NCBI GenBank assembly: GCA_000004695.1 | Contig: CM000151.3 | Span: 5,664,001-5,728,000 of the forward strand | Reading direction: 5' to 3' | From: Dictyostelium discoideum | Taxonomy: Eukaryota | Length of the DNA stretch: 64,000 nucleotides | Shown here: piece by piece, positions 1,840-50,246 of the stretch | How positions within the stretch are numbered: position 1 is the stretch's first letter | Layout of the letters: each line of letters opens with the position of its first letter | Made by a program: the position numbers and the translations under genes | The notes under the pieces: model-generated | Told to the model about the DNA's origin: nothing | Database searches by the model: none | The model's input: only the letters and a program-made list of their open reading frames with translations

Positions 1840-4800
1840 ATGAATGATTCAAATAGCAGCAATGATAGTTGCAACACCGAAAATAATACCTTGACAGCCA
1901 CTAAAAATAGCATCAACAACACAACTACAACCACAACCACACCTAATAACAATGTTAATTGTTTAAAAACCAGTGGTAGTATTAAACTATCAGCTTCATC
2001 AGTACCATTTATACCAGGCTCATCAGCATCATTGCCATCTATTTTATCAAATCAATATAAATTAGCGGCATCCAATAATGTATCAAATAATATTATGATG
2101 ATTTCCACACCAATCATTTCTTCAGCACAACAACAACAACAACAAGTACCACCACCACAACAAACTACAACAACAACAACAGCAACAGCAACAGCAATAA
2201 CGCCAACACCTATTACAACATCACAATCAACATCATCCTCAATGTTAAATTTACCATTAAAAGTTGGTAAAGAATCTATTGAAACATTGTTTAGGAATAG
2301 ATTTCATCCAAAAAATAATATTAGAGAAACTGTTTTATCATCATTACAAAGTATATTAATACCTGATCTATCGGATACTATTAATAATACAAAAGAGAAT
2401 ATCGAATATTTTTATAATATGATCATTGATGAAAATAATTATATTCTAAAGTTATTATTATTAAATATAATAAATGATACAAAAAGAAATTTAGTAGTTT
2501 ATAATTATAATCAACAACATCAATTACCAATTCAAAATACATCATCACCAAATACTCCATCATCAACAACAACAACAACAACTACATCAACTAAACCATC
2601 TAAAAGAGGAGATAAAGAAAGAGAAAGAGGTAGAAGAAATAAAGATAAGATTAATGAAAAACAATTACAACAACAGCAATTACAACAATTACAATTACAA
2701 CAACAATTAGATCATGAAGGTTCTTCACTTTATTTACCATTTTCAAGTTTATTATCTTTTATTAAACCTGATAAACAACAACAACCACAACAATCACAAC
2801 AATCACAATTAAATGAAATTGATCAAATGGTTAGACCAAAATCATTACCAAAAGATGATAATGATAGTGATAATTTTAATATTAGAGTTTTGGAGTATAA
2901 TTTAAAGTTATTGATAAAGATTTATTTCAAGGTATCAATGTACCAAGATTCAATTAAAACTCATATCTTTGATTTATATATACAAATTAATCAAGCAATC
3001 TCTGAACAACAAAGACAATTACAAGAGAAAGAGAAAGAGAGTAAAACTTCAAAACCAATACCACAACCAATCATTTCATTGGTAATTCCAACGGTATTGG
3101 TATCGATTGGTGATATCATAAAATATAAATATGCAACACCTTCACCACCAAATCTAACACCAACAACAACTACTAAAATGGAGGAAGAGGAAAGAATCAT
3201 TAATACTATATTAATTAATGAATTTAAAAAAACTGATGTTTCAATCATTGAGTCAAATTTATACCTTTTCGAATGTATTTTATCAATTAGTGTTAGTAAT
3301 GAACCAACAATTGTAGTACCAAATACAACAACTGCAACAACTGCAACAACTGCAACAACATCAAATACTTCTACAGCAGCAGCTGCAACAACGACAACAC
3401 CAACACTATCAACATCTTCTTCATCATTATCACCACCAGCATCAACACAATCATCATTATCATTATCATCATCATCATCAGCAGTGATAGCACCAACAAC
3501 AGTAGGTTATATTTTCAAATTTAATAAAGAATTATTTAGAAAGTTAATAGCATTAGTTTATTCTACAGTAGTTCAACATCAAATAACCTTATCTACTGTA
3601 TTTACAACATTGGTTTTAAAAGGTTATTTAAATGAGGATCAAATTCAAAAATTATTAAATATTACATTATTTAAGTAAGTAATTTTAAATATAATCATTA
3701 AAGATATAATGATAGAATAAAGAATATATATATTAATACATTTACATTTTAATATATAGATTATCAGATCCAAGTGAACAAGTTAAATTAAGTTATTTAA
3801 CATTATTAAGTAAGATGGTATCATATTTCGATTTAAACCATCAAAAGAATTTAAATCATAAAGTTAATGACATATCATTACCTTATAAACTATTGATAAT
3901 GGGATCAACAAGTCAACCATTTTTTAATGGTCAAATTTTTAAAAAGATATTTGATTGGATCATGGGAATTGGTAAAGATCAACCATCTTTTGATTCTTTA
4001 ACAAAGTATCTAATCGATTTATTCGATAGTTTTAATGTAATCTCAATATTATTCAATGAACAAAATAAAATATTATCACAACAATATTTAGCTGCTCAAT
4101 CAACTATGATAACTCCACCATTAAGTTTACATCAAATTGATGATAGAAGTATGTAAAAACTATAACAATTTTTATTATTATTATCATCATCACCATTATT
4201 ATTAATTAATTAATACTAATCATTTATTATTATTTATTATTTATTATTATTATCATCATCCCCTAGGAAAATTTGAAACATTAATATCAAAATCTGATGA
4301 ATTAATTTGGTTTTGGACAGTTTGGGAATGTAGTAAATTTTGTATTGCCAATAGATTGAAATCACCATATGGTAGTGCATTTCAAACGTTTGAAATCTTT
4401 GAAAAGTTATTATTACAATTGAATAAGGATAGAAGGGATTTTAAAAAGATAAAGATTTTATTACATTTTATGGAATCTATGGAGAAATTAATTTTCTCCA
4501 CTGTTAATGGATCGGTTCTAGTACAATCATTAAACAATAAGGAGACTCAATTCTTTAGACATAACGTTAGAGTTTGTGAAGATTGGTTCTCTAGAATTCG
4601 AGTAAATCTATTGAAAGCTAGTATTCTATCAAGTTCAACACCAGATATCATTAGACATGCTTCACTTAGAGTTCAAGATATTCAAGCTAATAGATTCGTT
4701 CTAGATTCAAATACAGCTCATTTTGAATTGGAATTTTGTATATTACATTTAGCAAATGCCCTACAACAATTAAATGAAACTGAATCATTACAAGGTTTAT

Positions 4801-4849
4801 CAAATTGGTCTGATATAAATTTAAATAATAGTGATAATAATAATAATAA

Positions 4850-4880
<31 letters not shown>

Positions 4881-5419
4881 TCAACATTCTTTAATAATGG
4901 TAATATTAATAAATATACATTAAAATTACCATGGATGAAAGGTGTTATATTAAGAAGTAAACAAAAGTTTGAAGAATCAATTAGTTCATTATTGAGTGTA
5001 CCACCAATGTTGGAATCAAATTCAATATCATTTCCATTCGTATTGGAACAAATTATTAAATCTTATTTAGATATTTCAAATTTTACAGAGGTTGAACAAT
5101 TTTTACAAAATTATCAAAATCAAATTCAACAACAATCAAATTCTTTAATAATCTATAAAGATACATTCATTAAAACTTTGGGTTCATTCTATCGTGGTGA
5201 AATGGAAGAAGCTCATGCTTTTGCAAAGAGAACTGAATCTCAAAATCATATATTACAAAGAGAACAATTAGGTTTAGGTTTATTAGGTAATCAAATTATG
5301 ACTGATGAATTATTATTATCAATTATGGTTAATCAAAAAGATTTATTTAATAATACAAATATTATTAATAATAATAATAGTGGTGGCAGTAGTAGTGGTA
5401 CAGCAACAGCAACAGCAGT

Positions 5420-5475
<56 letters not shown>

Positions 5476-8400
5476 ATACAAATAATGATATTATTGGATT
5501 TAGTAATAATATTAATAGTATGTTAAAACTAACAAAGAATAATATATTAAAAGCATTAAATTATTTAGGATTAGAATCAAATGTTCAAACATTTCAATAT
5601 TTAACACAATTGAAAATTATGGATGAAATTGAAAATGGTGTTTATAATAGTAGAGTGGTACCAATTAATAATCAAATTGGATTCTTGGAGAGATTAAGAA
5701 GAGTTAGAGGTCATATTTCAAATACTAAACAACGTTCTGATATTCTTCTAAGTAATATACCATTGACTGAAAAAATGATTAAACTATCAAGAAAATTTGA
5801 AAATTATAAATTTAGTTCAAAATTATTAGATACAATTTTAGAATCTCATTCATCTTCCTATTATTTAGAACGTTGTAAATTAAAATATTTAAATGGTAAA
5901 CAAACTGAAGCAACTTTAGATTTAATTAAATATGCACATCGTGATATAACAATACCATCATCATCGACAACAACAACGACAACGACGACAACAACAACAC
6001 CACCATCAACATCATCAAATACTGCTACAACAACAAATAATATAAATATTGATGAATTATCAACACAAAAATTTAAAGTTTATACAGAAATTATTAAATA
6101 TTTAAATTCAAATCCATCAATTATTACAGAATTATCATCATCAAACTATTCTATACCTCAAGAACAATTAAATCCAGAATATTATTTTAAGAAAGCAACT
6201 TTAACTAAACCTGAGAATTCAAAATTATGGATAACCTATGCTGATTGGATTTTAAATGAAAAAAGTAATATATCTGAACAAAATGATGAAGAATCATTAA
6301 ATGGTGGTGGTAGTGGTGGTAATGAAAATTCATCAAATGAAATGTTAAGACTTAAAAATACAAATACTAATGAACTAAAAACAGCAGTTGAAGCATATTT
6401 CCAATTTTTAAAGTATAGTATGTTGGATGGTAATAGTAATGGTGGTTTAAATATTAGGGCAACACTTAAAATATTGAATATTTTAGTTTGTTCAGGTAAT
6501 AAATTGGTTGAAACATTTGAAAGATGTCTAAATGAATTAACTTCAACTCGTCCTTTCACAATTATTATACCACAATTATTTGCAAGATTAAGTCATCCCG
6601 ATACATTTGTTCAAAAATATGTTGTTGAAATTTTAAATAGAATTGGTAGAGATAATCCAAATAAAATAGTTTATCAAACTATTGTTGGTTCTTTAAATTT
6701 TACAAATACAAATAATAATAATAATAGTTCTTGTGCTGCTGCCACTACTGATGATGGTTTAGATATTGAATTATTACAAAAACAATATCCAAATTATTTA
6801 CAAATTTTAAATATTAAAGAGAATCTATTAAAACATTCAGAATTATTAGTAAAAGAGACAGAGACACTCATTTATCAATTAGGTAAACTTACAACATTGT
6901 GGGATGATAATTGGCAATATTTCATTGAACAAATTCAAGGTTGGGTCTATATTAATACTAAACAATGGAATGATGACTATCAACAATTGAAAGCCACAAT
7001 AAAGAATCCAACCATACTAAAACATACTCTAAAGAAAAAGAATCAGGAATTACTTCAACCAATTTATGAAAAGTTAAAACGTTTAACTGCTGCCACCGTT
7101 TTATCAGTTTGTAAAACTCCACATGAAAAATGGTTTACCAAATGTCATTTCGAAACTATAAACAAAACAATACGTGCATTTGAAAAACAAAATAAACCAA
7201 CCTCTCCATTCGATGTACTTCATGATTTAATAGCTGAATTTCAACAATATCGTTTAATTTCTTTAAGTTTATCATCAGTTAATCCATCATTAGCTTTATT
7301 TAGACCAACTATAACTCAAATGCCTGGTACTGATTTAAATTATTTTAATATTAATCATATTCATCATCATCATCATCATCATAACCATCATGGTAATAAT
7401 AATAATCAACATTCAACATCAAGTGGTAATTTACCAATTCAAAATCAAGTTACAATTCAATTAATTAAACCAACCATTTATTTATTACCAACAAAAACTA
7501 AGCCAAAGAAAATGGCAATGCTTGGTAGTGATGGTAATCTTTATTATTATCTTTTGAAAGGTCGTGAAGATTTACATTTGGATGAAAGAATTATGCAATT
7601 ATTAAATGTTGTCGATCAATTATTAATGAATGATAAAAAACCAACTTTAAAACTATTGAGAACTAGAAATTATTCAGTTATACCTCTATCTCAAAGTTCT
7701 GGTTTAATTCAATGGGTTGAAGGTGCTGTACCATTATTTTCAATTTATAAAAATTGGTATAAAAATGATCAAGTTTATAAACAACAACAACAGCAACAAC
7801 AACAATTACAACAGCAACAACAGCAACAACAACAACAACAACAACAACAACCACAACCACAACAACAACCACAACAACAACCACAACAACAACCACAACA
7901 ACAACCACAACCACAACAAAACTCAACTACAACTTCAAATATAGTAAATAAACCAATTATAGCTAGACCAGTTGATATATTCTATGCAAAGATTACACCA
8001 TTATTAGAAAAGGCTGGATTAAATTTCATGACACCAAGATCAGAATGGCCAAAAGAAATATTAATTCAAGTACTCAATGAACTAATGCAAGAAACTCCAA
8101 AATGGATTCTACAAAGGGAGTTATGGTTTTCAAGTAGCTCTTCATCAGAGTTATTCTTAAAAACTCAAAGTTATAGTAGATCTTTAGCATTGATGTCAGT
8201 GATTGGTTATATGATAGGTTTAGGTGATAGACATTTAGATAATATTTTATTAGATTTGAAAACTGGTGAAATCGTTCATATCGATTATAATATTTGTTTT
8301 GAAAAAGGTGCTGAATTGAAAATACCAGAGAGAGTACCATTTAGAATGACCCAAATCTTTGAATATGCCTTAGGTTTAACTGGTGTTCAAGGAACTTTTA

Positions 8401-8707
8401 GAGAAACAAGTATACAAATTATGCATTTGTTACGTAAAAATAAAGATATCCTATTAAATTTATTGGAAACTTTTATTTATGACCCACTATTTGATTGGAA
8501 ACATTCAAATAAACAAACAAATAATAATAATAATAATAATAATAACAATAATATGAATCAAGCAGCTGGTGAACAAGAATCTATAGAAAAGAAACAATCT
8601 TCAAATAATTCAAGTAATCCTATAATTTCAACACCAACAAAATTACAACAACAACAAAAATTGCCAAATAGCCCATTATCAATTTCTTCAAATAATACCA
8701 ATTCCAC

Positions 8708-8777
<70 letters not shown>

Positions 8778-9077
8778 GATCAAGATAGTGATTCAAGTCA
8801 AAGTCAAGAAGATGAAGATAATAATGTTGTTGAAGGTGAAGGAGGTGAAGGAGGTGAAGGTGATATTGATGAATTGAATTTAGTTCAAGATTCCTCAAAT
8901 GGAAAGGATGCATTTAAGAGTATCCAAGGTTTAACTGTTGTCAACCAAGTGAGACTAAAATTAGAAGGTACAGAAAAGAAACTATCAATTCCAGATCAAA
9001 TTGATCTTATTATAAGAGAATCCATGAATGTTGAAAATCTATCCTCCACTTATGAAGGTTGGTCTCCATGGGTCTAA
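1840..9077 (+). CDS. smg1: SMG1-type PIKK-family serine/threonine kinase. Three exons: 1840..3674, 3760..4148, 4267..9077. Predicted about 2344 aa.
   Basis: Exon 1 ends AA|GTAAGT at 3675, the intron ends tatatAG at 3759, exon 2 ends A|GTATGT at 4149, and the next intron ends cccctAG at 4266. The reading frame is continuous across both junctions. The C-terminal region has the PI3K/PIKK catalytic core: TKPKKMAMLGSDGNLYYYLLKGREDLHLDERIMQLLNVVDQLL, the catalytic loop GDRHLDNILLDLKTGEIVHIDYNICFEKG, and a terminal FATC motif ...NLSSTYEGWSPWV* that resembles the SMG1 FATC (EGWTAWV). A long low-complexity insertion between the kinase domain and FATC is typical of SMG1. The N-terminal 600 aa are Q/T/N-rich. 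Confidence 0.8.
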
Positions 9078-10642: not shown

Positions 10643-11653
10643 TTAAATTATTAATTTTAATATAAATAATATTGAAGAAATTAAAATTAAAGAATAAGAT
10701 AAAACATTTGAATTTGATGGTCTATCATCGTCATCAGAATCATCATCATCATTATCATTATCAAAGATTACATATTCAACGTCTTGAGAAATTGACTCAT
10801 CACCAAAAGAAACTGTGAGTGGATATTTTCCAGACTTTGAAACCGATGGATATTTAAATACTAAATTATTTGCATCAATTGATTCGATTTCACATGGAAT
10901 ATTATTGATTTTTAAATTCAATAAATTTGGAAATGATGTTTTAAAAGAACCATTCAAATTTGATTTACCACCTGTAATATTTAATTTTGGAATATTTGTG
11001 ATTGACAATTCCTCAAATAAATAAAATGTAACAGACTCTGATATTTGGCCTCCAACATTCATCATAATTTCAAATTTACCACCTTTATCTAAATAATTTG
11101 TTGGATTAATTGAATCAGTCAATGTAATAGAACCATTAATAGCTTTTGAAGCTTTATAAATTTGACCATTCAATGTAACATTATTCTCTAATTTATAACT
11201 AAAACCTTTACCAATAATTGATAATTCACCACTGCCAGAAATAATTTGGTTATTATTATCTCTTTTCATTTTGAAAGTGTATGAAGAAATAACTGGTTTT
11301 TCATATGTATAATTAAATGTTTGATTATAATTATAATCTAAAAAGTATGCGATAATTGTAAAGTTTTTATCTGATTGGCCTGCTGGTATATCAATTTCCA
11401 ATGTTGAATCTGGTACTAAAACTTTAACTGATGCTCCACCTCCATCAATATTATCTTCCACAATAATAGTTTCGCCAATAACATCGGATCCAAAATCAAC
11501 ACCATTCACTGTTATAACTGATCCATAAGTGTTGGCAATAATATTAAGGCTTTCAACAAAAAATGTTGGGCAATTTTCAAAATCTTCACATTTTGATTCA
11601 ACTAAATTATTTAATAATAAAATCATTAAAATTGAAACTAATAATTTTATCAT
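10643..11653 (-). CDS. Small secreted or GPI-anchored cell-surface protein with three IPT/TIG-like repeats. Single exon, 336 aa.
   Basis: It has an N-terminal signal peptide (MIKLLVSILMILLLNNLVESK), repeated IPT-like segments (SVITVNGVDFGSD; ELSIIGKGFSY; KLNITGGKSNLNGSF; PLTVSFGDESIS), many N-glycosylation sequons, an acidic DDDDSDDDD stretch, and a C-terminal hydrophobic tail (LSYSLILISSILFILKLII) consistent with a GPI signal. Confidence 0.55.
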   Translation of the reverse strand: MIKLLVSILMILLLNNLVESKCEDFENCPTFFVESLNIIANTYGSVITVNGVDFGSDVIGETIIVEDNIDGGGASVKVLVPDSTLEIDIPAGQSDKNFTIIAYFLDYNYNQTFNYTYEKPVISSYTFKMKRDNNNQIISGSGELSIIGKGFSYKLENNVTLNGQIYKASKAINGSITLTDSINPTNYLDKGGKFEIMMNVGGQISESVTFYLFEELSITNIPKLNITGGKSNLNGSFKTSFPNLLNLKINNIPCEIESIDANNLVFKYPSVSKSGKYPLTVSFGDESISQDVEYVIFDNDNDDDDSDDDDRPSNSNVLSYSLILISSILFILKLII

Positions 11654-14002: not shown

Positions 14003-15062
14003 ATGAAATTTATTATTTTTATTTTATCATCAATTTTAATAATATACATTGGTTATGTTGTTGGTATTGATAGGTCAACAATAACAGAACCAAAACTTGG
14101 TGATTTACAAAATATTAAAAATGACAAATTAATATCATCTACAAACAATCCTCCATTACCATTTCTATCAAGAAAACAATTTAAATATAATGTAGTTTTA
14201 AAAAAGAATAAAAATAAAGAAAACAAACAACAAACTAAAGAAAACAATGATAATAATGATGAAAATGAAGATACTACTACTACTTCTAATACTGCTACAA
14301 TACCAGTAACAACTAATAATAATAATAATAATAATGAATTTAATACAATTAATATGGCATCAAAAGATGGTTCAATTTATAAATGTTTAATACCAAAACC
14401 AATTAAAGAGACTAAAGAAAAGTGGATTCAAATTCCAACTGTTGAAACAATTAAAGAATCACTTTCAAATTTAAAACAAAAATGTATTAAATCAGCTAAT
14501 CCAGGTTTATGGTGGTCATACGAATTTTGTTATCATGATAAAGTTAGACAAGTGCATGTTGAAAAGAATGAAGTTCAAAGTGAATTCATATTGGGTACTT
14601 TTATTGATTCACCTCAAAATGGTGCAATCAAAGGTATAGATCAAACTATTTTAGAAAAGTATATGAAAAAAGAAATCACTGAACTACCTCAATCAACTAC
14701 AACAACACCTTCAAATTTTTTACCTTATTTTAGTGAAAAATATGAAGATGGTACTGTTTGTGAAATTTTAAATATTAAAAGGTATATATATATATATAAC
14801 ATTTATTTCTTTATTCCTTTATTTATTTCTTTATTTTAGTAGTTGTAGTAGTATTAATTTATAATTTATTATTATACTTTATAGACATACTGAAGTTAGA
14901 TACTATTGTTCTAAAGATGCAATTCAACCAACAATTCAAGATATAGGTGAACCATCTTCTTGTGCATATTTATTAAAAGTTTTAACAAACAAAATGTGTA
15001 TTCACCCATTATTCCAACCAAAACAAAATAAAGCATTGGATATTCAATGCACGAAAATATAA
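14003..15062 (+). CDS. OS-9/Yos9-like ER lectin with an MRH (mannose-6-phosphate receptor homology) domain, an ERAD component. Exons 14003..14781 and 14885..15062.
   Basis: It has a signal/anchor N-terminus (MKFIIFILSSILIIYIGYVVG). MRH hallmarks span the intron: ...SANPGLWWSYEFCYHDKVRQVHVEKNE...GTVCEILNIKR | HTEVRYYCS...PSSCAYLLKVLTNKMCIHPLF. The donor is AG|GTATAT at 14782 and the acceptor is tttatAG at 14884, with a phase-2 junction giving Arg. Confidence 0.75.
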
Positions 15063-20934: not shown

Positions 20935-21657
20935 ATGGCAAATACAATTAATACAAATGAAGAATTTGAAAATATTTTAAAAGATAATAAATTTTTAGTT
21001 GTTATGTTTTGGGCAGATTGGTCAAAACCATCAACTCAAATGAGAGATGTTTTTGATCAATTAGCTAAACAAGCTACAAATCAAGCAAACAATAAACTTT
21101 TATTCTTAAAAGTTGAAGCAGAGAAAGTTCATCAAATTTCTGGTAGATATAATGTTAAATCTGTACCAACTTGTATATTTTTAAATCAAGGTAAATTAGT
21201 TCAATCAGTCGTTGGTGCTAATCCATCAGAATTAGCATTACAAACAAATAATTTCTCAAAAACTTGTGATACATTACCATTGGAAGAGCAACAACAACAA
21301 CAACAAAGTGAAGAAATCATAAATAAAATTAAATTAGATCAAGAACAAGAGAAAAAATTATTAAATGAAAGATTAGAAAAACTTGTAAATCAATCACCAG
21401 TTATGTTATTTATGAAAGGTAATCCAGAGAAACCACAATGTGGTTTCTCAAATAAAACTGTTACAATCTTAAAAGAGAATGGTTTTGAATTTGGTTCATT
21501 CGATATCTTACAAGATCAAGCAGTTCGTAATGGTTTAAAGGAATATTCGAATTGGCCAACTTATCCTCAATTATATATCAATGGTAAATTAGTTGGTGGT
21601 TATGATATTATTAAAGATTTAAATGAAGAAGGTGAATTAATTGATCTTAAGCCATAG
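20935..21657 (+). CDS. Glutaredoxin-3 / PICOT-type protein with a thioredoxin-like domain and a monothiol CGFS glutaredoxin domain. Single exon, 240 aa.
   Basis: The N-terminal Trx-like fold is ...[26 protein letters not shown]. The C-terminal monothiol Grx is [76 protein letters not shown], with a CGFS active site. Confidence 0.9.
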
Positions 21658-27216: not shown

Positions 27217-28809
27217 TTAAATTAATTGAATAACTTTTTTAATAGTTTCCCAATCTTGATCAGTATTTTCTTCATGAGTACATTGATTAATATATTTTTT
27301 CCAAAAGTATAATAATTGTTTTGAATAGTTTGAAGCTTTATTTTGAGCTTGTTGATTATTGTTGTTAACATTTTGAACTACACGATATCTAAGATGGTCG
27401 AAACAAATACCCAAATGTTTTAAAGACCAACATTTATCATTGACATAGGTGAGTGCTTTCTCTAAGATTTCAACGGATAATTCTAAAGCTTTAAATGATT
27501 CAGTATTTTGTTGACTTAAATATTCTTTTAATAGGGTTTCAGCAGCTCTTTCCAAAGAGACAGCCATTTCTTCCATCATGAAATGTTCCCAACTATCATT
27601 TGGATATTTTTCAGTATTATTTGGTATATGAAAGGAAGGGAATGTTGAAAAAGTGGTTTTAATAATCTTAAAGGTATTAAATTTGTGTGAGTCTTTCTTT
27701 GGAATAATTTGAGATGTTAAACCCTTACTAATGGTATAATAATCATTTTGGAATGAGCTATCACCCGATTTAAAATCACCACCAATATAAATTGGACGAT
27801 CATTGATATTTGCATCTAAAAAATCTTTTAATGAATAACCATCTGGAATGTATGGATGATAAACGTTACCTGGGAATTTAACACGTTGAAATAATGGTGA
27901 TTGAGTGATTTTAAACCATTCCCAACTCATAATTTCCATTGAAAGTATATCAATATCTGGTCGAACCTTTTCACATAAATGTAAATACATTGGTACATTT
28001 GTAACCAAATCACCACCAACCAACAATAATGTATTTCTTGGTAAACCATCTAAAACTGAATGACCATAATCATAGAATGAATAATTATCACTTTGATCTT
28101 GTAAATTATAATTAAATCCAATTTGATTACCAACTAATAAAATAATAATAATTGGTAATAAATATTTTTGAATCTTTGAAATTGTTGTTGTTGTTGTTGC
28201 TGCTGTACCACCATCTCTTTGAATTCTATTTAGAAATCCAAAAATTGATTTAATACCTAATCCCATTGTTATTGATATTATTACATTTGGTTGCATAAAA
28301 AATCTTAAAAATACACCTCTATATAATGGTTTATCAATTGGTAAATTACATAAATTGAAAAAGAATGTAATATAAAATAAAAATGAAAATATAATCATTG
28401 TACCAAATGATTTCCATTTAAATGTTCTAAAAAAAAAAAATAAAAATAAAAAAAAAATTTAAAAAAATAATTAGTAAAATTAAAAATTAAAATAATAATA
28501 ATAATAATAATTAAAAATTTCAATGAATTACCTTATATTATAACCTAATAATAAATTTAATAAACCAATTAATGATAATGCTAAACCAATGTAACCAAAT
28601 TGAATTATTAAATTTTCAATATAAATTGAAATTTTAGTAAATAATGAAATTACACCACCATCACCACCATATAATTGTAATGTTCCATATTCTTCTCTTA
28701 GAAAATGTTTTATAAAACCACTATAAATATAAATATAAATATAAATAAATATAAATATAAATATTTGATTAGTATTTTAATTTTTAAATAATCTAGATTG
28801 TTTTGTTTT

Positions 28810-28871
<62 letters not shown>

Positions 28872-29348
28872 CAAAAAAACATACCGTAATGTTGAAGTAT
28901 TACCCCAAGAATATTTAACTCTATTTAATTTTGGAGTAATAAATAATAAAAGATAAGGTGATAAACCAATTAATGTATAGAATACTAAATTTGATAAGAT
29001 TTTAATATTCCAAAGTTGATCTCTACCAGAGATAAACATTAACCAAAATGCAAATGGAATCACTATTAATACTAGGGTATGTTGATTAGTTAAACCGATT
29101 GCACAACTGAATGCACTTAAATAAGCTATACGTTCAGATGTCCAAAATGCTGTATTATATCTTTCATTTTCAAATATTCTAACCCTGGTATACCACACAC
29201 CTAAAAACATTAACATTGCAACAAACATATTATTCATTGAAAATACTTCACCTTGAATTTGATACATCCAAATTAATGGTGAAAATGTAAACATATATGC
29301 TGATAATAATCCACACCAATGATTATTTACCCATCTTAATTATAATTT

Positions 29349-29405
<57 letters not shown>

Positions 29406-29940
29406 ATTAATAATACTATACTCAATTATATTCTATTTACTATAGTATTCATTAATATATTTATTATATACATACAAATAAACAGTTAAATAAATGAAAA
29501 TACTTGCTATTGAACCAATCATTGATGACATAAAAGATATTTTCCATGCAACAGATAAAGTATTTGATGGGATGATATGTGAGAATATGTAACCTAAAAA
29601 TGTGAATAATGGATAACCAGGTGGATGAGCAACACCAAATTGATGTGCAACTACAATAAGTTCACCAGCATCACCTCCTGATACTGATGGATATTGTGTC
29701 ATTGAATATATAATCGTACATGATATGAATAATAATACAATACATGCTATTGTACTCTTTTTTAAAATTTTAAAACATCTATCTTTTTGTTGTTGTAATT
29801 GAGTATCTTCCCTCTCTATTATTCCATCATTCCAATTCATAAAATCTTTTGCCATATTCATTGTTGTTGATGATACATTATTATTAACATTAATAATATT
29901 ATTATTATTATTATTTCGATTATTTACATTTCTATTTACA

Positions 29941-30013
<73 letters not shown>

Positions 30014-30086
30014 TACTATTACTATTACTATTATTATTATTATTTTTTCTATTTCTTGTATTTGACAGTGTGGGTGAATTGTTCAT
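27217..30086 (-). CDS. TMEM260 / DUF2723-family multi-pass membrane protein, a putative protein O-mannosyltransferase. Four exons (minus strand): 30086..29476, 29334..28885, 28730..28532, 28426..27217.
   Basis: The DUF2723 signature is ...YPSVSGGDAGELIVVAHQFGVAHPPGYPLFTFLGYIFSHIIP. There are many TM segments, and the C-terminal exon is soluble and helical/TPR-like. The junctions are TT|GTATGT...ttaAG|A (Leu), CG|GTATGT...tttatAG|T (Arg), and AG|GTAATT...ttttAG|A (Arg). All are frame-consistent. Introns 1 and 2 contain poly(A/T) tracts of 60 to 65 nt. Confidence 0.7.
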
Positions 30087-30286: not shown

Positions 30287-30350
30287 GAAAAAATTTTCAT
30301 CAAAAATTTAGTGGTATTGGCTTTTTTTGGCTTTTTAAAAATATACACAA

Positions 30351-30445
30351 ATAAAATAAAATAAAATAAAATAAAATAAAATAAAATAAAATAAAATAAA
30401 ATAAAATAAAATAAAATAAAATAAAATAATATAAAATAATATAGA
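30351..30445. repeat. (AAAAT)n microsatellite.
   Basis: It is an ataaaataaaataaaat... run in the divergent promoter region between the TMEM260-like and uL23m genes. Confidence 0.9.
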
Positions 30446-46341: not shown

Positions 46342-47933
46342 TTTCCAGTAAAAAAAAAAAATAAAAAAAAAAAAAATAAAAAATTATCCAATCAAATTTT
46401 AACAGTAAAAAAAAAAAAAAAAGAAAAATAATAATAACCAATCACTTACCATTTGAACTAATATCTTTAATGTCTGCATTTTTCAAAGGAATTGTGTAAA
46501 CGTATTTATAATTTGAAAAAAGGCTAGATTTCTTTGTGACTAACACCATATCATTGAAAAAGAATAAATAAAAACCACCACTTTCACTTTTCTTATTTGC
46601 AGAGATATTACATTGTGACTCTCTAACAAAATATCTATGAGATTCAATTAATTCCTAAAAATAGTAACAAAAAAAAATAAAAAAAAATAAAAAAACAGGA
46701 GTTTTTTTTTTATTATTAATAAAGTATTAGTAAAATAAAAAAAATTATTATTTTAAAAAAAAAAAGAAAAAAAGGTGATATTATTATATTATTAAATTAA
46801 TTAAAAATTAATTAATTAAAATTTTTTTTTTGGTAATTTTTTTTTTTTTTTTTTTTTTATAAAAAAAAATAAAAATATCTAAATTTTCAAATAAAATGAA
46901 AATGGTCAAAAATAAAAAAAAAATAAAAAAAAACAAAAATATCTTTTTTTTAAAAAAAAAAAAAGTTTAAAGTAATATTACTTACTGGTGCATTTTTAAT
47001 TTCTTTTTGTAACTCTAATAATTTTGCTCTATTATCAACATTTCTCTTTCTATCATTAATATACTTATTAATATCTTTGATTGATTCATAAGCACTTTTA
47101 ATATTTTTAAATTCAACATGATCCTCTTGAGTGTGTTTTAAAATTTCCCTTAATAATAATTCATATCTTGGACAACGTTGAACTGGCATAATTAATAAAC
47201 TATTAATATCAGTTGCTACTCTTGATTTATTTCTTTGTTCTGAAAAGAATTTCTTTGATTGTGGATTCTCTGTCATTGCTTTTAATTGTGGTGCTACTTT
47301 ATCAAAATTATTTACATATTCCACATAAATTTTAAAAATTGGTGCCTTTTTTTTTTTTTTTTCAAAATAAATTAATAAAATAAAATAAAAAAAAAAAAAA
47401 AGAAATATTACTTACAAATTTAACAAAAATATCACCAATTTTAACAGGTGAAACTGATAATCTTTCTTCTAAAAGATGAGTAATCTCTGTACTAATTTGA
47501 AGGATACTTTTTAAATTTGAAAATACCTTATTAATTTCTTCACTTTTAAATAATTTTGTAACCCTCGCTTCAACTTCCATTGGAATAAAGTAAAACTTAA
47601 AAAAAAAAAAAAAATATAATATTAATAATTTTTAATTATAAAATTTAATAAATTAAAAATTTAAATTCCACTTACATCTCTTAAAATTAATAATGAATTT
47701 AAATATGATAATTCAGTAGAATATAACTCATTAACAGATTTAAATCTATTTCTCATATTTTCAGTTTCCGGATCATTTGATAAAAGTTTCATTTTAACTA
47801 AATCCTTAAACTTCTTTCTTGCTAACCATTTTCTACTTACTCTTTGAACACGAATAATATCACCAAATCTATAATTACCATCAACAATTTGATCCAATTC
47901 TTTTTGTGTATAAGTTTTAACAATTTTAACAGG

Positions 47934-47988
<55 letters not shown>

Positions 47989-50246
47989 GGTGGTTGTTCT
48001 TGTTGTGGTTGTGGTTGTTGAATAGTTGGTGATAATTTTGGTAAATGAGAAGAATTTCTTGATGGAATAACTGGTTTTTGTTGTGGTAAATTATCATTAA
48101 TATTTTGATCATCTTTATTTTTTAAAGCAATATTTGAAGCAGGTGAATTTTTATTATTAATATTTAAAGTTGATAACATATTACGCATTGGTTGTAATGA
48201 ATCGATTGTGGCTTGTTTAGATTGATTAATTTGTACTAATAGTTCACGTTGTTGACAATCGACCATTTCTTTTTGACGATTAATGTGATCTTGTTGTTCT
48301 TTTAATTTCTTTTCTTCTTGTTGACGAGCTTGTTCAATTTCAAGTTTCTTTCTTTTAGTTTCTTCATCAATTGATTGTTTATAGATTTGAATCTCTTTTT
48401 TCTCTCTCAAAGTTGTTTCTTCCAAAGCTTTACGCTGGTTCTCTAAATCCTCTTTACTCTTTAACGAAGTGGTTAAATCAGATTGTAATTTCGATTTCAA
48501 TGCATCCAATTCCTTATTTCTCTCAAGTAGCTCGAATTCACGTTTTTTCATCTCCTCGCATTTCTTTTCCTCCTCTACCTTTCTGCTACACTCATCTTGA
48601 TGAAGTTTGGATTGGAATGCTTGTTGCTGTGAGATGAGTTGCTGCTGCTTCTCGTCCAACTTCTCTTTGATCACACGTTGTTCCTCCAAGAGAGCCAAAC
48701 GTACTTGTTCTTCATGTTTTCTGCTTAGGTCTCTCTCTTTTTGAACCTCTATCAACTGTCTCTTCATCTCTTCTTGTTGCCATTGCAAAGCTGCTTGTTT
48801 AGCTTGTTCCATTTGTTTTAGATCTTCTTCACCCTTCTTTTTCGATGCATTCTGTTGTTGTACCAATTGATCTTTCATCTTTTGAATTTCGTCTCTTTGT
48901 TTCTCCAATTCATTCTTTAATCTATTTGATTCCTCTTCATGTTTAATTCTAATCTTTTCCATCTCTTCATTTCTAATTCTTTCTTGTTCTTTCTCATAAG
49001 CTGCTTGTTGTTCATAATAAACTCTCCATGATTCTTCATATTCTTTTCTTCTCTTTTCTTCTTCTTCTTGATATTTTTTATCATAAAGTACTTGATATTC
49101 TTGTTGTTGAGTTTGATTTGAATATGTATCAGTATTATTATTATATGATGAGTTATTATAAGTTGATTGATCATATCCCCATGAATTTCTATTATTATAA
49201 TTTGTATTTGTGGCTGATGATGGATTATTATAAGTTGTGTTTGTATTTGTTGGTGATGATGTTGTTGTTGTTGTTGATGGATTATTGTAAGTTGTATTTG
49301 TGGTTGATGATGATGGATTATTATATACTGATTGTGGTTGTTGTGGTTGTGGTTGTTGTTGATTATAATCCCAAGAATTAATAGTTGCAGATGGAGTATT
49401 TGATGGTGTACCTTTAATGAAATGATCCATATTTTTAAGTGATTGACTTTTTTCAAATTTAGATTGATTATCTGTTGTTGTTGTTGTTGTTGTTGAGGAT
49501 GATGATGATGTTGATGTTGGTGTAGTTGGTTGTTGATAATAAGAGTCATAGTTTGTGGCTGTATTATTTGTAACTTGTGAATAATCATATGATGAAGTTG
49601 GTGAATGTTGTTGTTGAGTTTGTGAATAATCATATGAATTTCTTTGAGCTGGTGGTTGATAATATGAATCATAGTTTGTAGATGTATTTGTGGTATTATT
49701 AGTTGCTGCTACTGTTGGTGTTGGTTGTTGTTGTTGTTGTTGTGAATAATATGAATTTGTTGAATAATCATATGATGATGGTGTTGGTGAATGTGTTTTA
49801 GAATTATCATAACCATAAGTATTAGCACTGGTTGTATTAGTTGTAGTATATTGATCATATTGACCACTATTTCTATTACCACTAGTATTACTATAATCAT
49901 AATTTTGGGTTGTGTTAGGTGTAGTTGTATTAGTTGTATTATATTGATCATATTGACCACTATTTCTATTACCACCAGTATTATAATCATATATTGAAGG
50001 TTGTTGTTGTTGTTGTTGTGTAGTAGAAGTAGTAGCATAAGTTGGATCTACATATGAACTTCCATAGTGTTGTTGTTGACTATCATTTGATTGTGCAGTA
50101 TGGTCATATACTGGATATTGTGGTTGTGGGTGTTGTTGTTGTTGATTATCATAGTATGATGCATAATCAAATGTCGGCTGTTGTTGTTGTTGTTGCTGCT
50201 GCTGCTGTTGTTGCTGCTGTTGTTGGTAATAATATTCATAGGACAT
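45701..50246 (-). CDS. Dbl-homology (DH) plus PH domain Rho/Rac guanine-nucleotide exchange factor. It has a long low-complexity N-terminus, a coiled-coil and an IQ-like motif. Five exons (minus strand): 50246..47676, 47595..47416, 47345..46985, 46654..46450, 45907..45701.
   Basis: The DH domain spans exons 1 to 3: ...RFKSVNELYSTELSYLNSLLILRD|FYFIPMEVEARVTKLFKSEEINKVFSNLKSILQISTEITHLLEERL...IGDIFVKF|APIFKIYVEYVNNFDKVAPQLKAMTENPQSKKFFSEQ...LLIMPVQRCPRYELLLREILKHT.... The PH domain is in exons 4 and 5: ELIESHRYFVRESQCNISANKKSESGGFYLFFFNDMVLVTKK.... An IQ-like IIRVQRVSRKWLARKKF precedes the DH domain. The donors are all GTAAGT, the acceptors are tttAAG, aaaAG, tttAG and aacAG, and the phases are consistent. 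Confidence 0.85.

Follow-up and report, generated by a model that had tools for sequence, protein, structure and literature searches.

The 64,000-nucleotide stretch of DNA analysed here (the window), which comes from Dictyostelium discoideum (assembly GCA_000004695.1, contig CM000151.3, positions 5,664,001 to 5,728,000 of the forward strand), carries at 27217..30086, on the minus strand, a gene whose sequence identifies its product as the D. discoideum orthologue of TMEM260, a member of CAZy family GT117. Human TMEM260 (GT117) is an IPT-domain-specific protein O-mannosyltransferase, which mannosylates the IPT domains of plexins and of MET. By homology, the protein encoded in the window is most likely an inverting protein O-mannosyltransferase that is an endoplasmic reticulum (ER) resident and depends on dolichyl-phosphate-mannose (Dol-P-Man), although its presence in the ER, the identity of the sugar as mannose and the use of protein Ser/Thr as acceptor are all points that we infer. 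It is likely that this GT117 O-mannosyltransferase is active, and that its closeness to an IPT/TIG-repeat gene in the same window, DDB_G0275553, is a coincidence. The gene is an uncharacterised member of a known enzyme family and, though an ordinary orthologue, lends support to a hypothesis that can be tested; in public databases, orthologues from D. firmibasis and D. purpureum are already labelled automatically as 'Transmembrane protein 260 homolog' or 'DUF2723 domain-containing protein'.

The family assignment is carried by two sequence searches. In the Pfam search, the 819-aa protein matched positions 1-176 of the 179 in the profile PF11028 ('Protein O-mannosyl-transferase TMEM260-like'), with E = 8.4e-40 and a score of 136.9 bits (cutoff 24.2); a genuine bird TMEM260 scores slightly less, at 129.7 bits. 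None of the PMT, PMT_2, MIR or TMTC-type models was matched even at E<=1. Among all PDB chain sequences searched with phmmer, human TMEM260 (9RQL/9RQM/9RQN) was the sole significant match (E = 8.3e-86), through an alignment of about 590 residues (query aa 113-704, human chain 26-589) that spans the membrane core and the luminal domain. The preliminary description, made from the letters of the sequence, had assigned the gene to the DUF2723/TMEM260 family of an amoebozoan host, as distinct from the PMT/TMTC enzymes, and both the assignment and the host are borne out. A further Pfam match to DUF3671 (19.7 bits, cutoff 34) and PDB matches to NDC1 and Skp1 were set aside as artefacts of the low-complexity poly-Asn sequence.

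The protein shares with human TMEM260 the PF11028 domain, a GT-C core of about 11 transmembrane helices (TMH), the GGD.GEL...AHPPGYP motif, the FLREEYG donor-loading loop, and a five-stranded luminal Rossmann-like domain followed by a five-helix C-terminal TPR-like domain, with an N-x-T sequon in the linker between these two. It differs in having about 110 aa before TMH1, mostly a poly-Asn tract, where the human protein has about 25, and in an extra poly-Thr loop insertion at aa 490-500. The bacterial proteins labelled DUF2723 or 'glycosyltransferase family 117' (Coraliomargarita, Candidatus Binatia) belong to the same Pfam family, have the same invariant residues for catalysis and for the donor, and are similar in length and in the order of their domains, but have 25-28% identity to the Dictyostelium protein, against 33-34% for the bird TMEM260 retrieved. 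With the PMT/POMT (GT39) and TMTC1-4 (GT105) enzymes, on the other hand, the similarity is at the level of the fold only, with 8-11% identity in structural alignments; the luminal domains differ, given that the Dictyostelium protein has neither a MIR domain nor a long TPR array, and the catalytic base of TMEM260 lies in the luminal Rossmann-like domain instead of the first loop (10.64898/2026.03.17.711096). The DPY19 C-mannosyltransferases (GT98) are another family, which forms a C-linkage to Trp and acts on thrombospondin repeats.

The gene model was rebuilt from the sequence, and its parts, all on the minus strand, are as follows (transmembrane helices and domains as predicted):

27217..30086, minus strand: the TMEM260-type gene, four exons, with the start ATG at 30086 and the stop codon ending at 27217
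29476..30086, minus strand: exon 1, with the poly-Asn low-complexity cytosolic N-terminus, R-N-R-K at aa 11-14, TMH1 at aa 110-130, and the sugar-recognition motif GGDAGEL...VAHPPGYPLF
29604..29678, minus strand: the signature GGDAGELIVVAHQFGVAHPPGYPLF in exon 1 (aa 137-161), which holds D139 (codon 29670-29672), E142 and H154
29335..29475, minus strand: intron 1, 141 nt, GT..AG, AT-rich with a long T run
28885..29334, minus strand: exon 2, with TMH2-TMH7 of the GT-C core
28721..28884, minus strand: intron 2, 164 nt, GT..AG, with a poly(A) run of about 70 nt
28532..28720, minus strand: exon 3, with the donor-loading loop HFLREEYG, which includes R362 (codon 28696-28698) and Y365 (codon 28687-28689), and TMH8
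28427..28531, minus strand: intron 3, 105 nt, GT..AG
27217..28426, minus strand: exon 4, including the stop codon, with TMH9-11 and R458, the luminal Rossmann-like domain with D556 (codon 28009-28011) and E581, and the five-helix TPR-like C-terminal domain

The spliced coding sequence of 2460 nt is in frame and yields 819 aa, and all three splice junctions match the orthologous proteins as annotated in D. cf. discoideum (810 aa), in D. citrinum (802 aa) and in D. firmibasis (808 aa), as seen, for example, at the exon 1/2 junction (...LTVYL|WVNNHW). The coordinates, the count of four exons and the GGDAGEL...VAHPPGYPLF signature given in the preliminary description all proved correct. The exact 819-aa model is absent from a collection of 15 billion proteins, and neither the homologues nor the relevant 90% clusters included an entry from strain AX4 for this gene, although the AX4 proteins of the neighbouring genes are present in the collection. 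One D. citrinum assembly annotates the gene solely as a 393-aa protein, which is a truncated model, given that its length equals that of the open reading frame (ORF) of the last exon, 27217..28398. Homopolymer runs of about 60-70 nt lie inside intron 1 (29340..29405) and intron 2 (28790..28880), and the start codon is preceded, at about 250 nt upstream, by a (AAAATAAA)n microsatellite of about 90 nt (30340..30430), all of which is typical of Dictyostelium non-coding sequence.

The functional residues of the human enzyme are known from a cryo-electron microscopy preprint (10.64898/2026.03.17.711096), in which D52 and H67 belong to the sugar-recognition motif, R264 and Y267 to the donor-loading loop and R355 to TMH10, with mannose contacted by D52, H67, Y267 and R355, phosphate bound by R264, and the catalytic base provided by D441, in the luminal Rossmann-like domain. 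By mutagenesis, D52, H67, R264, Y267 and D441 were essential (D52A, the H67 mutants, R264A and Y267A being inactive), and R355A reduced the activity to about 20% (10.64898/2026.03.17.711096). For the comparison, human residues 24-705 were rebuilt from the PDB alignment, with a numbering that reproduces every residue cited in the structure preprint, and a MAFFT alignment was made of 30 sequences, i.e., human TMEM260, the window protein and 28 homologues. All of the donor and catalytic positions are conserved (D52, E55, H67, R264, Y267, R355, D441 and E466 of the human protein correspond to D139, E142, H154, R362, Y365, R458, D556 and E581), and so is E582 (E697). The D139 and H154 columns are invariant in every full-length sequence of this alignment, the region being missing from one N-terminally truncated diatom sequence, and the column of D556, which lies in 'LLLVGGDLVTN', is invariant in 63 of the 63 sequences of a larger alignment.

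These conserved positions argue, at the level of sequence, for catalytic competence and for a donor of the polyprenyl-phosphate-mannose type, but single out no acceptor. One may also consider that the GT-C enzyme takes its sugar from another lipid-linked donor, such as dolichyl-phosphate-glucose (Dol-P-Glc), or else that it is a catalytically dead scaffold, given that GT-C relatives use many donors and that a sequence gives no certain identity of the sugar. Either is highly improbable, however, in view of the identity of all four mannose contacts, of the phosphate-binding arginine and of the catalytic base, and, in the case of the dead scaffold, of the strong purifying conservation found across the slime moulds.

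The predicted structure is consistent with the assignment to TMEM260. An AlphaFold2 model of residues 76-819, built from an alignment of 63 sequences, has a mean pLDDT of 91.6 and a pTM of 0.92, and shows eight strongly hydrophobic long helices plus three that are shorter or broken between aa 110 and 526, i.e., about 11 TMH, after which come five beta-strands in a luminal domain and, at the C-terminus, five helices. In human TMEM260, 11 TMH are joined by a Rossmann-like 'palm' of five strands and by TPR 'fingers' of five helices (10.64898/2026.03.17.711096). The predicted Dictyostelium layout of a GT-C fold, a Rossmann-like domain and a TPR domain matches this architecture as it is described in the publication. 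The N-x-T sequon in the linker (N686) stands near human N568, and agrees with a luminal position of the C-terminal domain.

An R-x-R-K or R-K-K motif is found within the first 15 or so residues of most dictyostelid orthologues, as RNRK in D. discoideum (window 30045..30056, aa 11-14), D. citrinum, D. firmibasis and T. lacteum, as RPRK in H. album and as TRKK in A. subglobosum. It is similar to R21/R22, an Arg-based motif for ER retention that has been noted in human TMEM260, and is the sole hint in the sequence that the protein may be retained in the ER.

Taken by homology, the mechanism would be that of a multi-pass GT-C glycosyltransferase of the ER membrane, which would take mannose from Dol-P-Man in a membrane-embedded donor pocket made up of D139, H154, R362, Y365 and R458, and would transfer it with inversion to the hydroxyl of a Ser or Thr in a luminal polypeptide that is extended and probably nascent. 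In this reaction, D556 of the luminal Rossmann-like domain would be the general base, and the acceptor chain would be held by the C-terminal helical (TPR-like) domain. The most likely acceptors would be the B-strand Thr/Ser residues of extracellular IPT/TIG domains, including those of the Tgr adhesion and allorecognition family.

The distribution of the gene was established by a homologue search in a collection of 5.8 billion proteins. An orthologue with 74% identity is present in D. purpureum, others with 52-61% identity are present in Polysphondylium violaceum, Heterostelium album, Cavenderia fasciculata, Acytostelium subglobosum and Tieghemostelium lacteum, and two transcripts with 38% identity come from the protosporangiid slime moulds Ceratiomyxa fruticulosa and Clastostelium recurvatum. 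Lower in the list of homologues are the animal TMEM260 proteins (28-34%), sequences from Plasmodiophora, Guillardia, diatoms and a chrysophyte, and bacterial 'GT117' proteins (25-28%). As Ceratiomyxa and Clastostelium carry homologues, the gene is older than the Dictyostelia, and the retrieval of one orthologue per genome assembly across the sequenced dictyostelids, together with these two protosporangiids, indicates a conserved function under selection. The GT117 family is also broadly eukaryotic, given the homologues in dictyostelids, protosporangiids, diatoms, a cryptophyte and Plasmodiophora. In the dictyostelids and the protosporangiids, the homologue is full-length and retains all of its catalytic residues. 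In a rough neighbour-joining tree without support values, the slime-mould proteins form a clade of their own, apart from the animal and the bacterial clades, which is eukaryotic and is not nested in bacteria. A bacterial origin by horizontal transfer was considered and is unsupported, both by this tree, rough and without support values as it is, and by the presence of the gene in the Protosporangiida.

The weakest step in the proposed function is the nature of the acceptor. That IPT/TIG domains are the acceptors of the Dictyostelium enzyme can be put forward tentatively, and they lead the candidates because of the homology and because dictyostelids have 55-110 such proteins. In D. discoideum, InterProScan identified 55 IPT/TIG proteins plus five that have EGF-like domains as well, and the families in dictyostelids comprise 55, 76 and 110 proteins (PMC4931340); 37 of the D. 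discoideum genes are the Tiger genes (PMC3188802). Among other Amoebozoa, the IPT/TIG counts are 5 in Acanthamoeba and 42 in Physarum. The core acceptor rule reported in a preprint of September 2026 is L/I/V at position -1, T/S at 0 and G at +3, and the N-terminal, TPR-bound part of the longer sequon was found to be dispensable (10.64898/2026.09.21.753134). The human residues that contact this acceptor core, G440, D441, E466 and V352, are conserved in the Dictyostelium protein. The suggestion made in the preliminary description, that a TMEM260-type enzyme could modify the Tgr and other IPT proteins, gains some support from the conserved catalytic machinery.

The IPT/TIG gene of the window offers a first set of candidate repeats:

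10643..11653, minus strand: DDB_G0275553, 336 aa, identical to XP_643470.1 of D. discoideum AX4

The three stretches of this protein that match Pfam TIG (PF01833) give 28.2 bits against a cutoff of 20.9, so that the IPT/TIG-repeat protein previously noticed at this place is real. Its N-terminus is hydrophobic and its hydrophobic C-terminal tail is preceded by small residues; by this heuristic, the termini are compatible with a signal peptide and a glycosylphosphatidylinositol (GPI) signal, and the protein may be secreted or possibly GPI-anchored. In an ungapped alignment from the strand-A proline, T48 of repeat 1 (I-T48-V-N-G-V-D-F-G) falls exactly on T822 of PLXNB2, and repeat 2 (L-S145-I-I-G) also fits the core acceptor rule, which repeat 3 fails with an Asn at position 0, so that two of the three repeats fit. 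In eight close relatives, neither T48 nor S145 varies, but nor does most of the rest of the protein. The length of an insertion in repeat 2, KMKRDNNNQIIS, and that of an acidic D/N tract before the C-terminal tail vary between strains. Relatives of DDB_G0275553 were detected in D. citrinum, in D. dimigraforme and in D. firmibasis but nowhere else, and it is a young gene. It is a possible substrate like any other IPT/TIG protein, i.e., one candidate among about 60 and not a dedicated partner, and nothing points to a specific link with the enzyme gene.

An extended sequon of 20 residues, P-x5-P-x3-G-P-x2-[GA]-G-G-x2-[TS], has also been described (10.64898/2026.03.17.711096). It was rejected as a test for the Dictyostelium IPT repeats, given that its printed spacing is not an exact fit to the PLXNB2 peptide from which it derives and that its N-terminal part was later shown to be dispensable (10.64898/2026.09.21.753134).

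Several points weigh against IPT/TIG domains as the acceptors. The internal P...G-P or G-G-G of the extended sequon is found in none of the three repeats of DDB_G0275553. The Thr of I-T-I-x-G belongs to the general IPT/TIG consensus, and because of this overlap the core motif in DDB_G0275553 is compatible with modification but not diagnostic of it. The catalytic and donor residues are equally conserved in bacterial GT117 proteins (Binatia, Coraliomargarita), and therefore speak for the competence of the enzyme and not for a specificity towards IPT domains. No report of O-mannose on Dictyostelium proteins was found in the searched literature, and in a glycogenomics review of 2021 the Dictyostelium O-glycans are GlcNAc-initiated and mucin-type, with no O-Man reported there.

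The divergence of the acceptor-binding side also counts against this specificity. In the human enzyme, an 'asparagine ladder' in the TPR domain (N602, N638, N642 and N680) recruits the acceptor peptide, and conservation falls off toward the TPR fingers (10.64898/2026.03.17.711096). In the MAFFT alignment, which has low identity in the TPR region, the ladder corresponds to K717, W750, H754 and H801 of the Dictyostelium protein; R439, P443 and I523, which contact the acceptor residue at -3, are replaced by G, V and G, and the stabilising C522/C544 pair is absent. N642 is an Asn in animals, in diatoms and in most of the bacterial sequences aligned, and a His in every dictyostelid. The K-N-[LYV]-[GA] motif (human K641/N642) thus reads K-H-[LIM]-G in all of the dictyostelids (D. 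discoideum aa 753-754, window 27825..27830) and K-Y-L-G in Ceratiomyxa and Clastostelium, and the change from K-N to K-H is a lineage-specific one at an acceptor-contacting position. As the TMEM260 proteins of a mollusc and a bryozoan retain only N642, most of the ladder is not family-defining and looks vertebrate. With the ladder not conserved and the TPR groove diverged, different acceptors are a real possibility, and the diverged TPR residues weaken the idea that Tgr and IPT proteins are modified.

These observations lend themselves to another reading, in which the chemistry is the same but the acceptors are others, i.e., the protein would be an active Dol-P-Man-dependent GT117 enzyme that mannosylates, in slime moulds, proteins or motifs distinct from IPT/TIG domains, and the IPT specificity would be a refinement of the TPR domain in animals or vertebrates. 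Besides the loss of the ladder and of several groove residues, its near absence from the mollusc and bryozoan proteins and the decay of conservation toward the fingers, this reading can draw on the presence of the same catalytic residues in the GT117 proteins of bacteria, diatoms, cryptophytes and Plasmodiophora. It is nevertheless unlikely, given that the core around the acceptor residue dominates over the dispensable TPR-bound part of the sequon, that the residues contacting this core are conserved, and that dictyostelids are unusually rich in extracellular IPT/TIG domains with the core motif.

If IPT/TIG domains are indeed the acceptors, a wider proposal may be made, namely that the slime-mould GT117 is the ancestral IPT/TIG O-mannosyltransferase, needed in Dictyostelium for both the folding and the export of the expanded IPT/TIG surface repertoire, so that IPT O-mannosylation would be no invention of the animals, and TgrB1/TgrC1 allorecognition and multicellular development would depend on an O-mannose pathway. 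This proposal as a whole is rather unlikely, if worth stating.

In the searched literature, no paper was found that links TMEM260 with Dictyostelium, nor any on GT117 or DUF2723 outside animals. That the enzyme may act on Dictyostelium IPT and Tgr proteins is a reasonable suggestion from homology, and one that was not found in that literature. Were it true, there would be an O-mannose pathway never described in Dictyostelium, a haploid and genetically tractable organism whose 55-60 IPT/TIG proteins, including the Tgr kin-recognition system, make it a cheap setting for the question. At stake are the age of IPT O-mannosylation and its role in the folding and trafficking of IPT domains, which is unsettled for a human disease gene (SHDRA syndrome). 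The value of the finding is thus the testable hypothesis, and not the sequence itself.

The proximity of the two genes, given as 16 kb in the preliminary description, might suggest that the enzyme gene and DDB_G0275553 form a functional pair of an enzyme and its dedicated IPT substrate. The genes lie on the same strand, 15.6 kb apart (a gap of 15,564 bp), two of the three IPT repeats have the core acceptor motif, and the arrangement is kept in D. firmibasis (locus tags 002419 and 002423) and in D. cf. discoideum (003527 and 003535). Synteny among near-identical species, however, needs no functional link, and at least seven unrelated genes stand in between, i.e., those for a PRKCSH-domain protein, an F-box protein, two ORFs without a Pfam match, a thioredoxin-glutaredoxin, a DUF676 esterase and a VWA protein, at a distance at which eukaryotic genes are transcribed independently. 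On the other flank of the TMEM260-type gene are ribosomal L23 and a Rab, and the order Rab-L23-TMEM260-VWA-DUF676-Trx/Grx-F-box is kept in D. purpureum, with C. fasciculata retaining only L23. No TIG gene was found within 10 kb on either side of the C. fasciculata orthologue, or near that of D. purpureum within about 3.5 kb on one side, where the contig ends, and 10 kb on the other.

The ages of the two genes also disagree, given that the IPT gene is limited to the closest relatives of D. discoideum and the enzyme, found in all of the dictyostelids and in the protosporangiids, is far older. With 55-60 IPT/TIG genes in a genome of about 34 Mb, moreover, the chance of such a gene within 16.5 kb on either side of a random point is about 5-6%, and that of one in a 64 kb window about 10%. 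A functional pair is therefore scarcely credible, and this reading is already effectively refuted. The intervening genes, the lack of a TIG gene in the C. fasciculata and D. purpureum regions examined, the young IPT gene beside an older enzyme and the 5-10% expected by chance all indicate that the proximity is a coincidence, and it carries no weight as evidence.

Finally, the window is extremely AT-rich and includes other genes. The ORF at 14003..14839 (plus strand, 278 aa) has a PRKCSH, or glucosidase II beta-like, domain (mannose-6-phosphate receptor homology; 61.5 bits) and may encode an ER lectin of the OS-9/Yos9 type, which would be another gene for the handling of ER glycoproteins in the window, with no sign of a link to the TMEM260-type gene. 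The thioredoxin-glutaredoxin fusion (Grx3/PICOT-like) is at 20935..21657 (plus strand), and is syntenic with the TMEM260-type gene in D. purpureum. A large ORF at 4356..9077 (plus strand) has SMG1, PI3/PI4-kinase and FATC domains, which mark it as a PIKK kinase of the SMG1 type, from the pathway of nonsense-mediated decay. An 861-aa ORF without a Pfam match, at 47661..50246 (minus strand), lies where the window is richest in GC (GC 0.31), with a strong AT skew.

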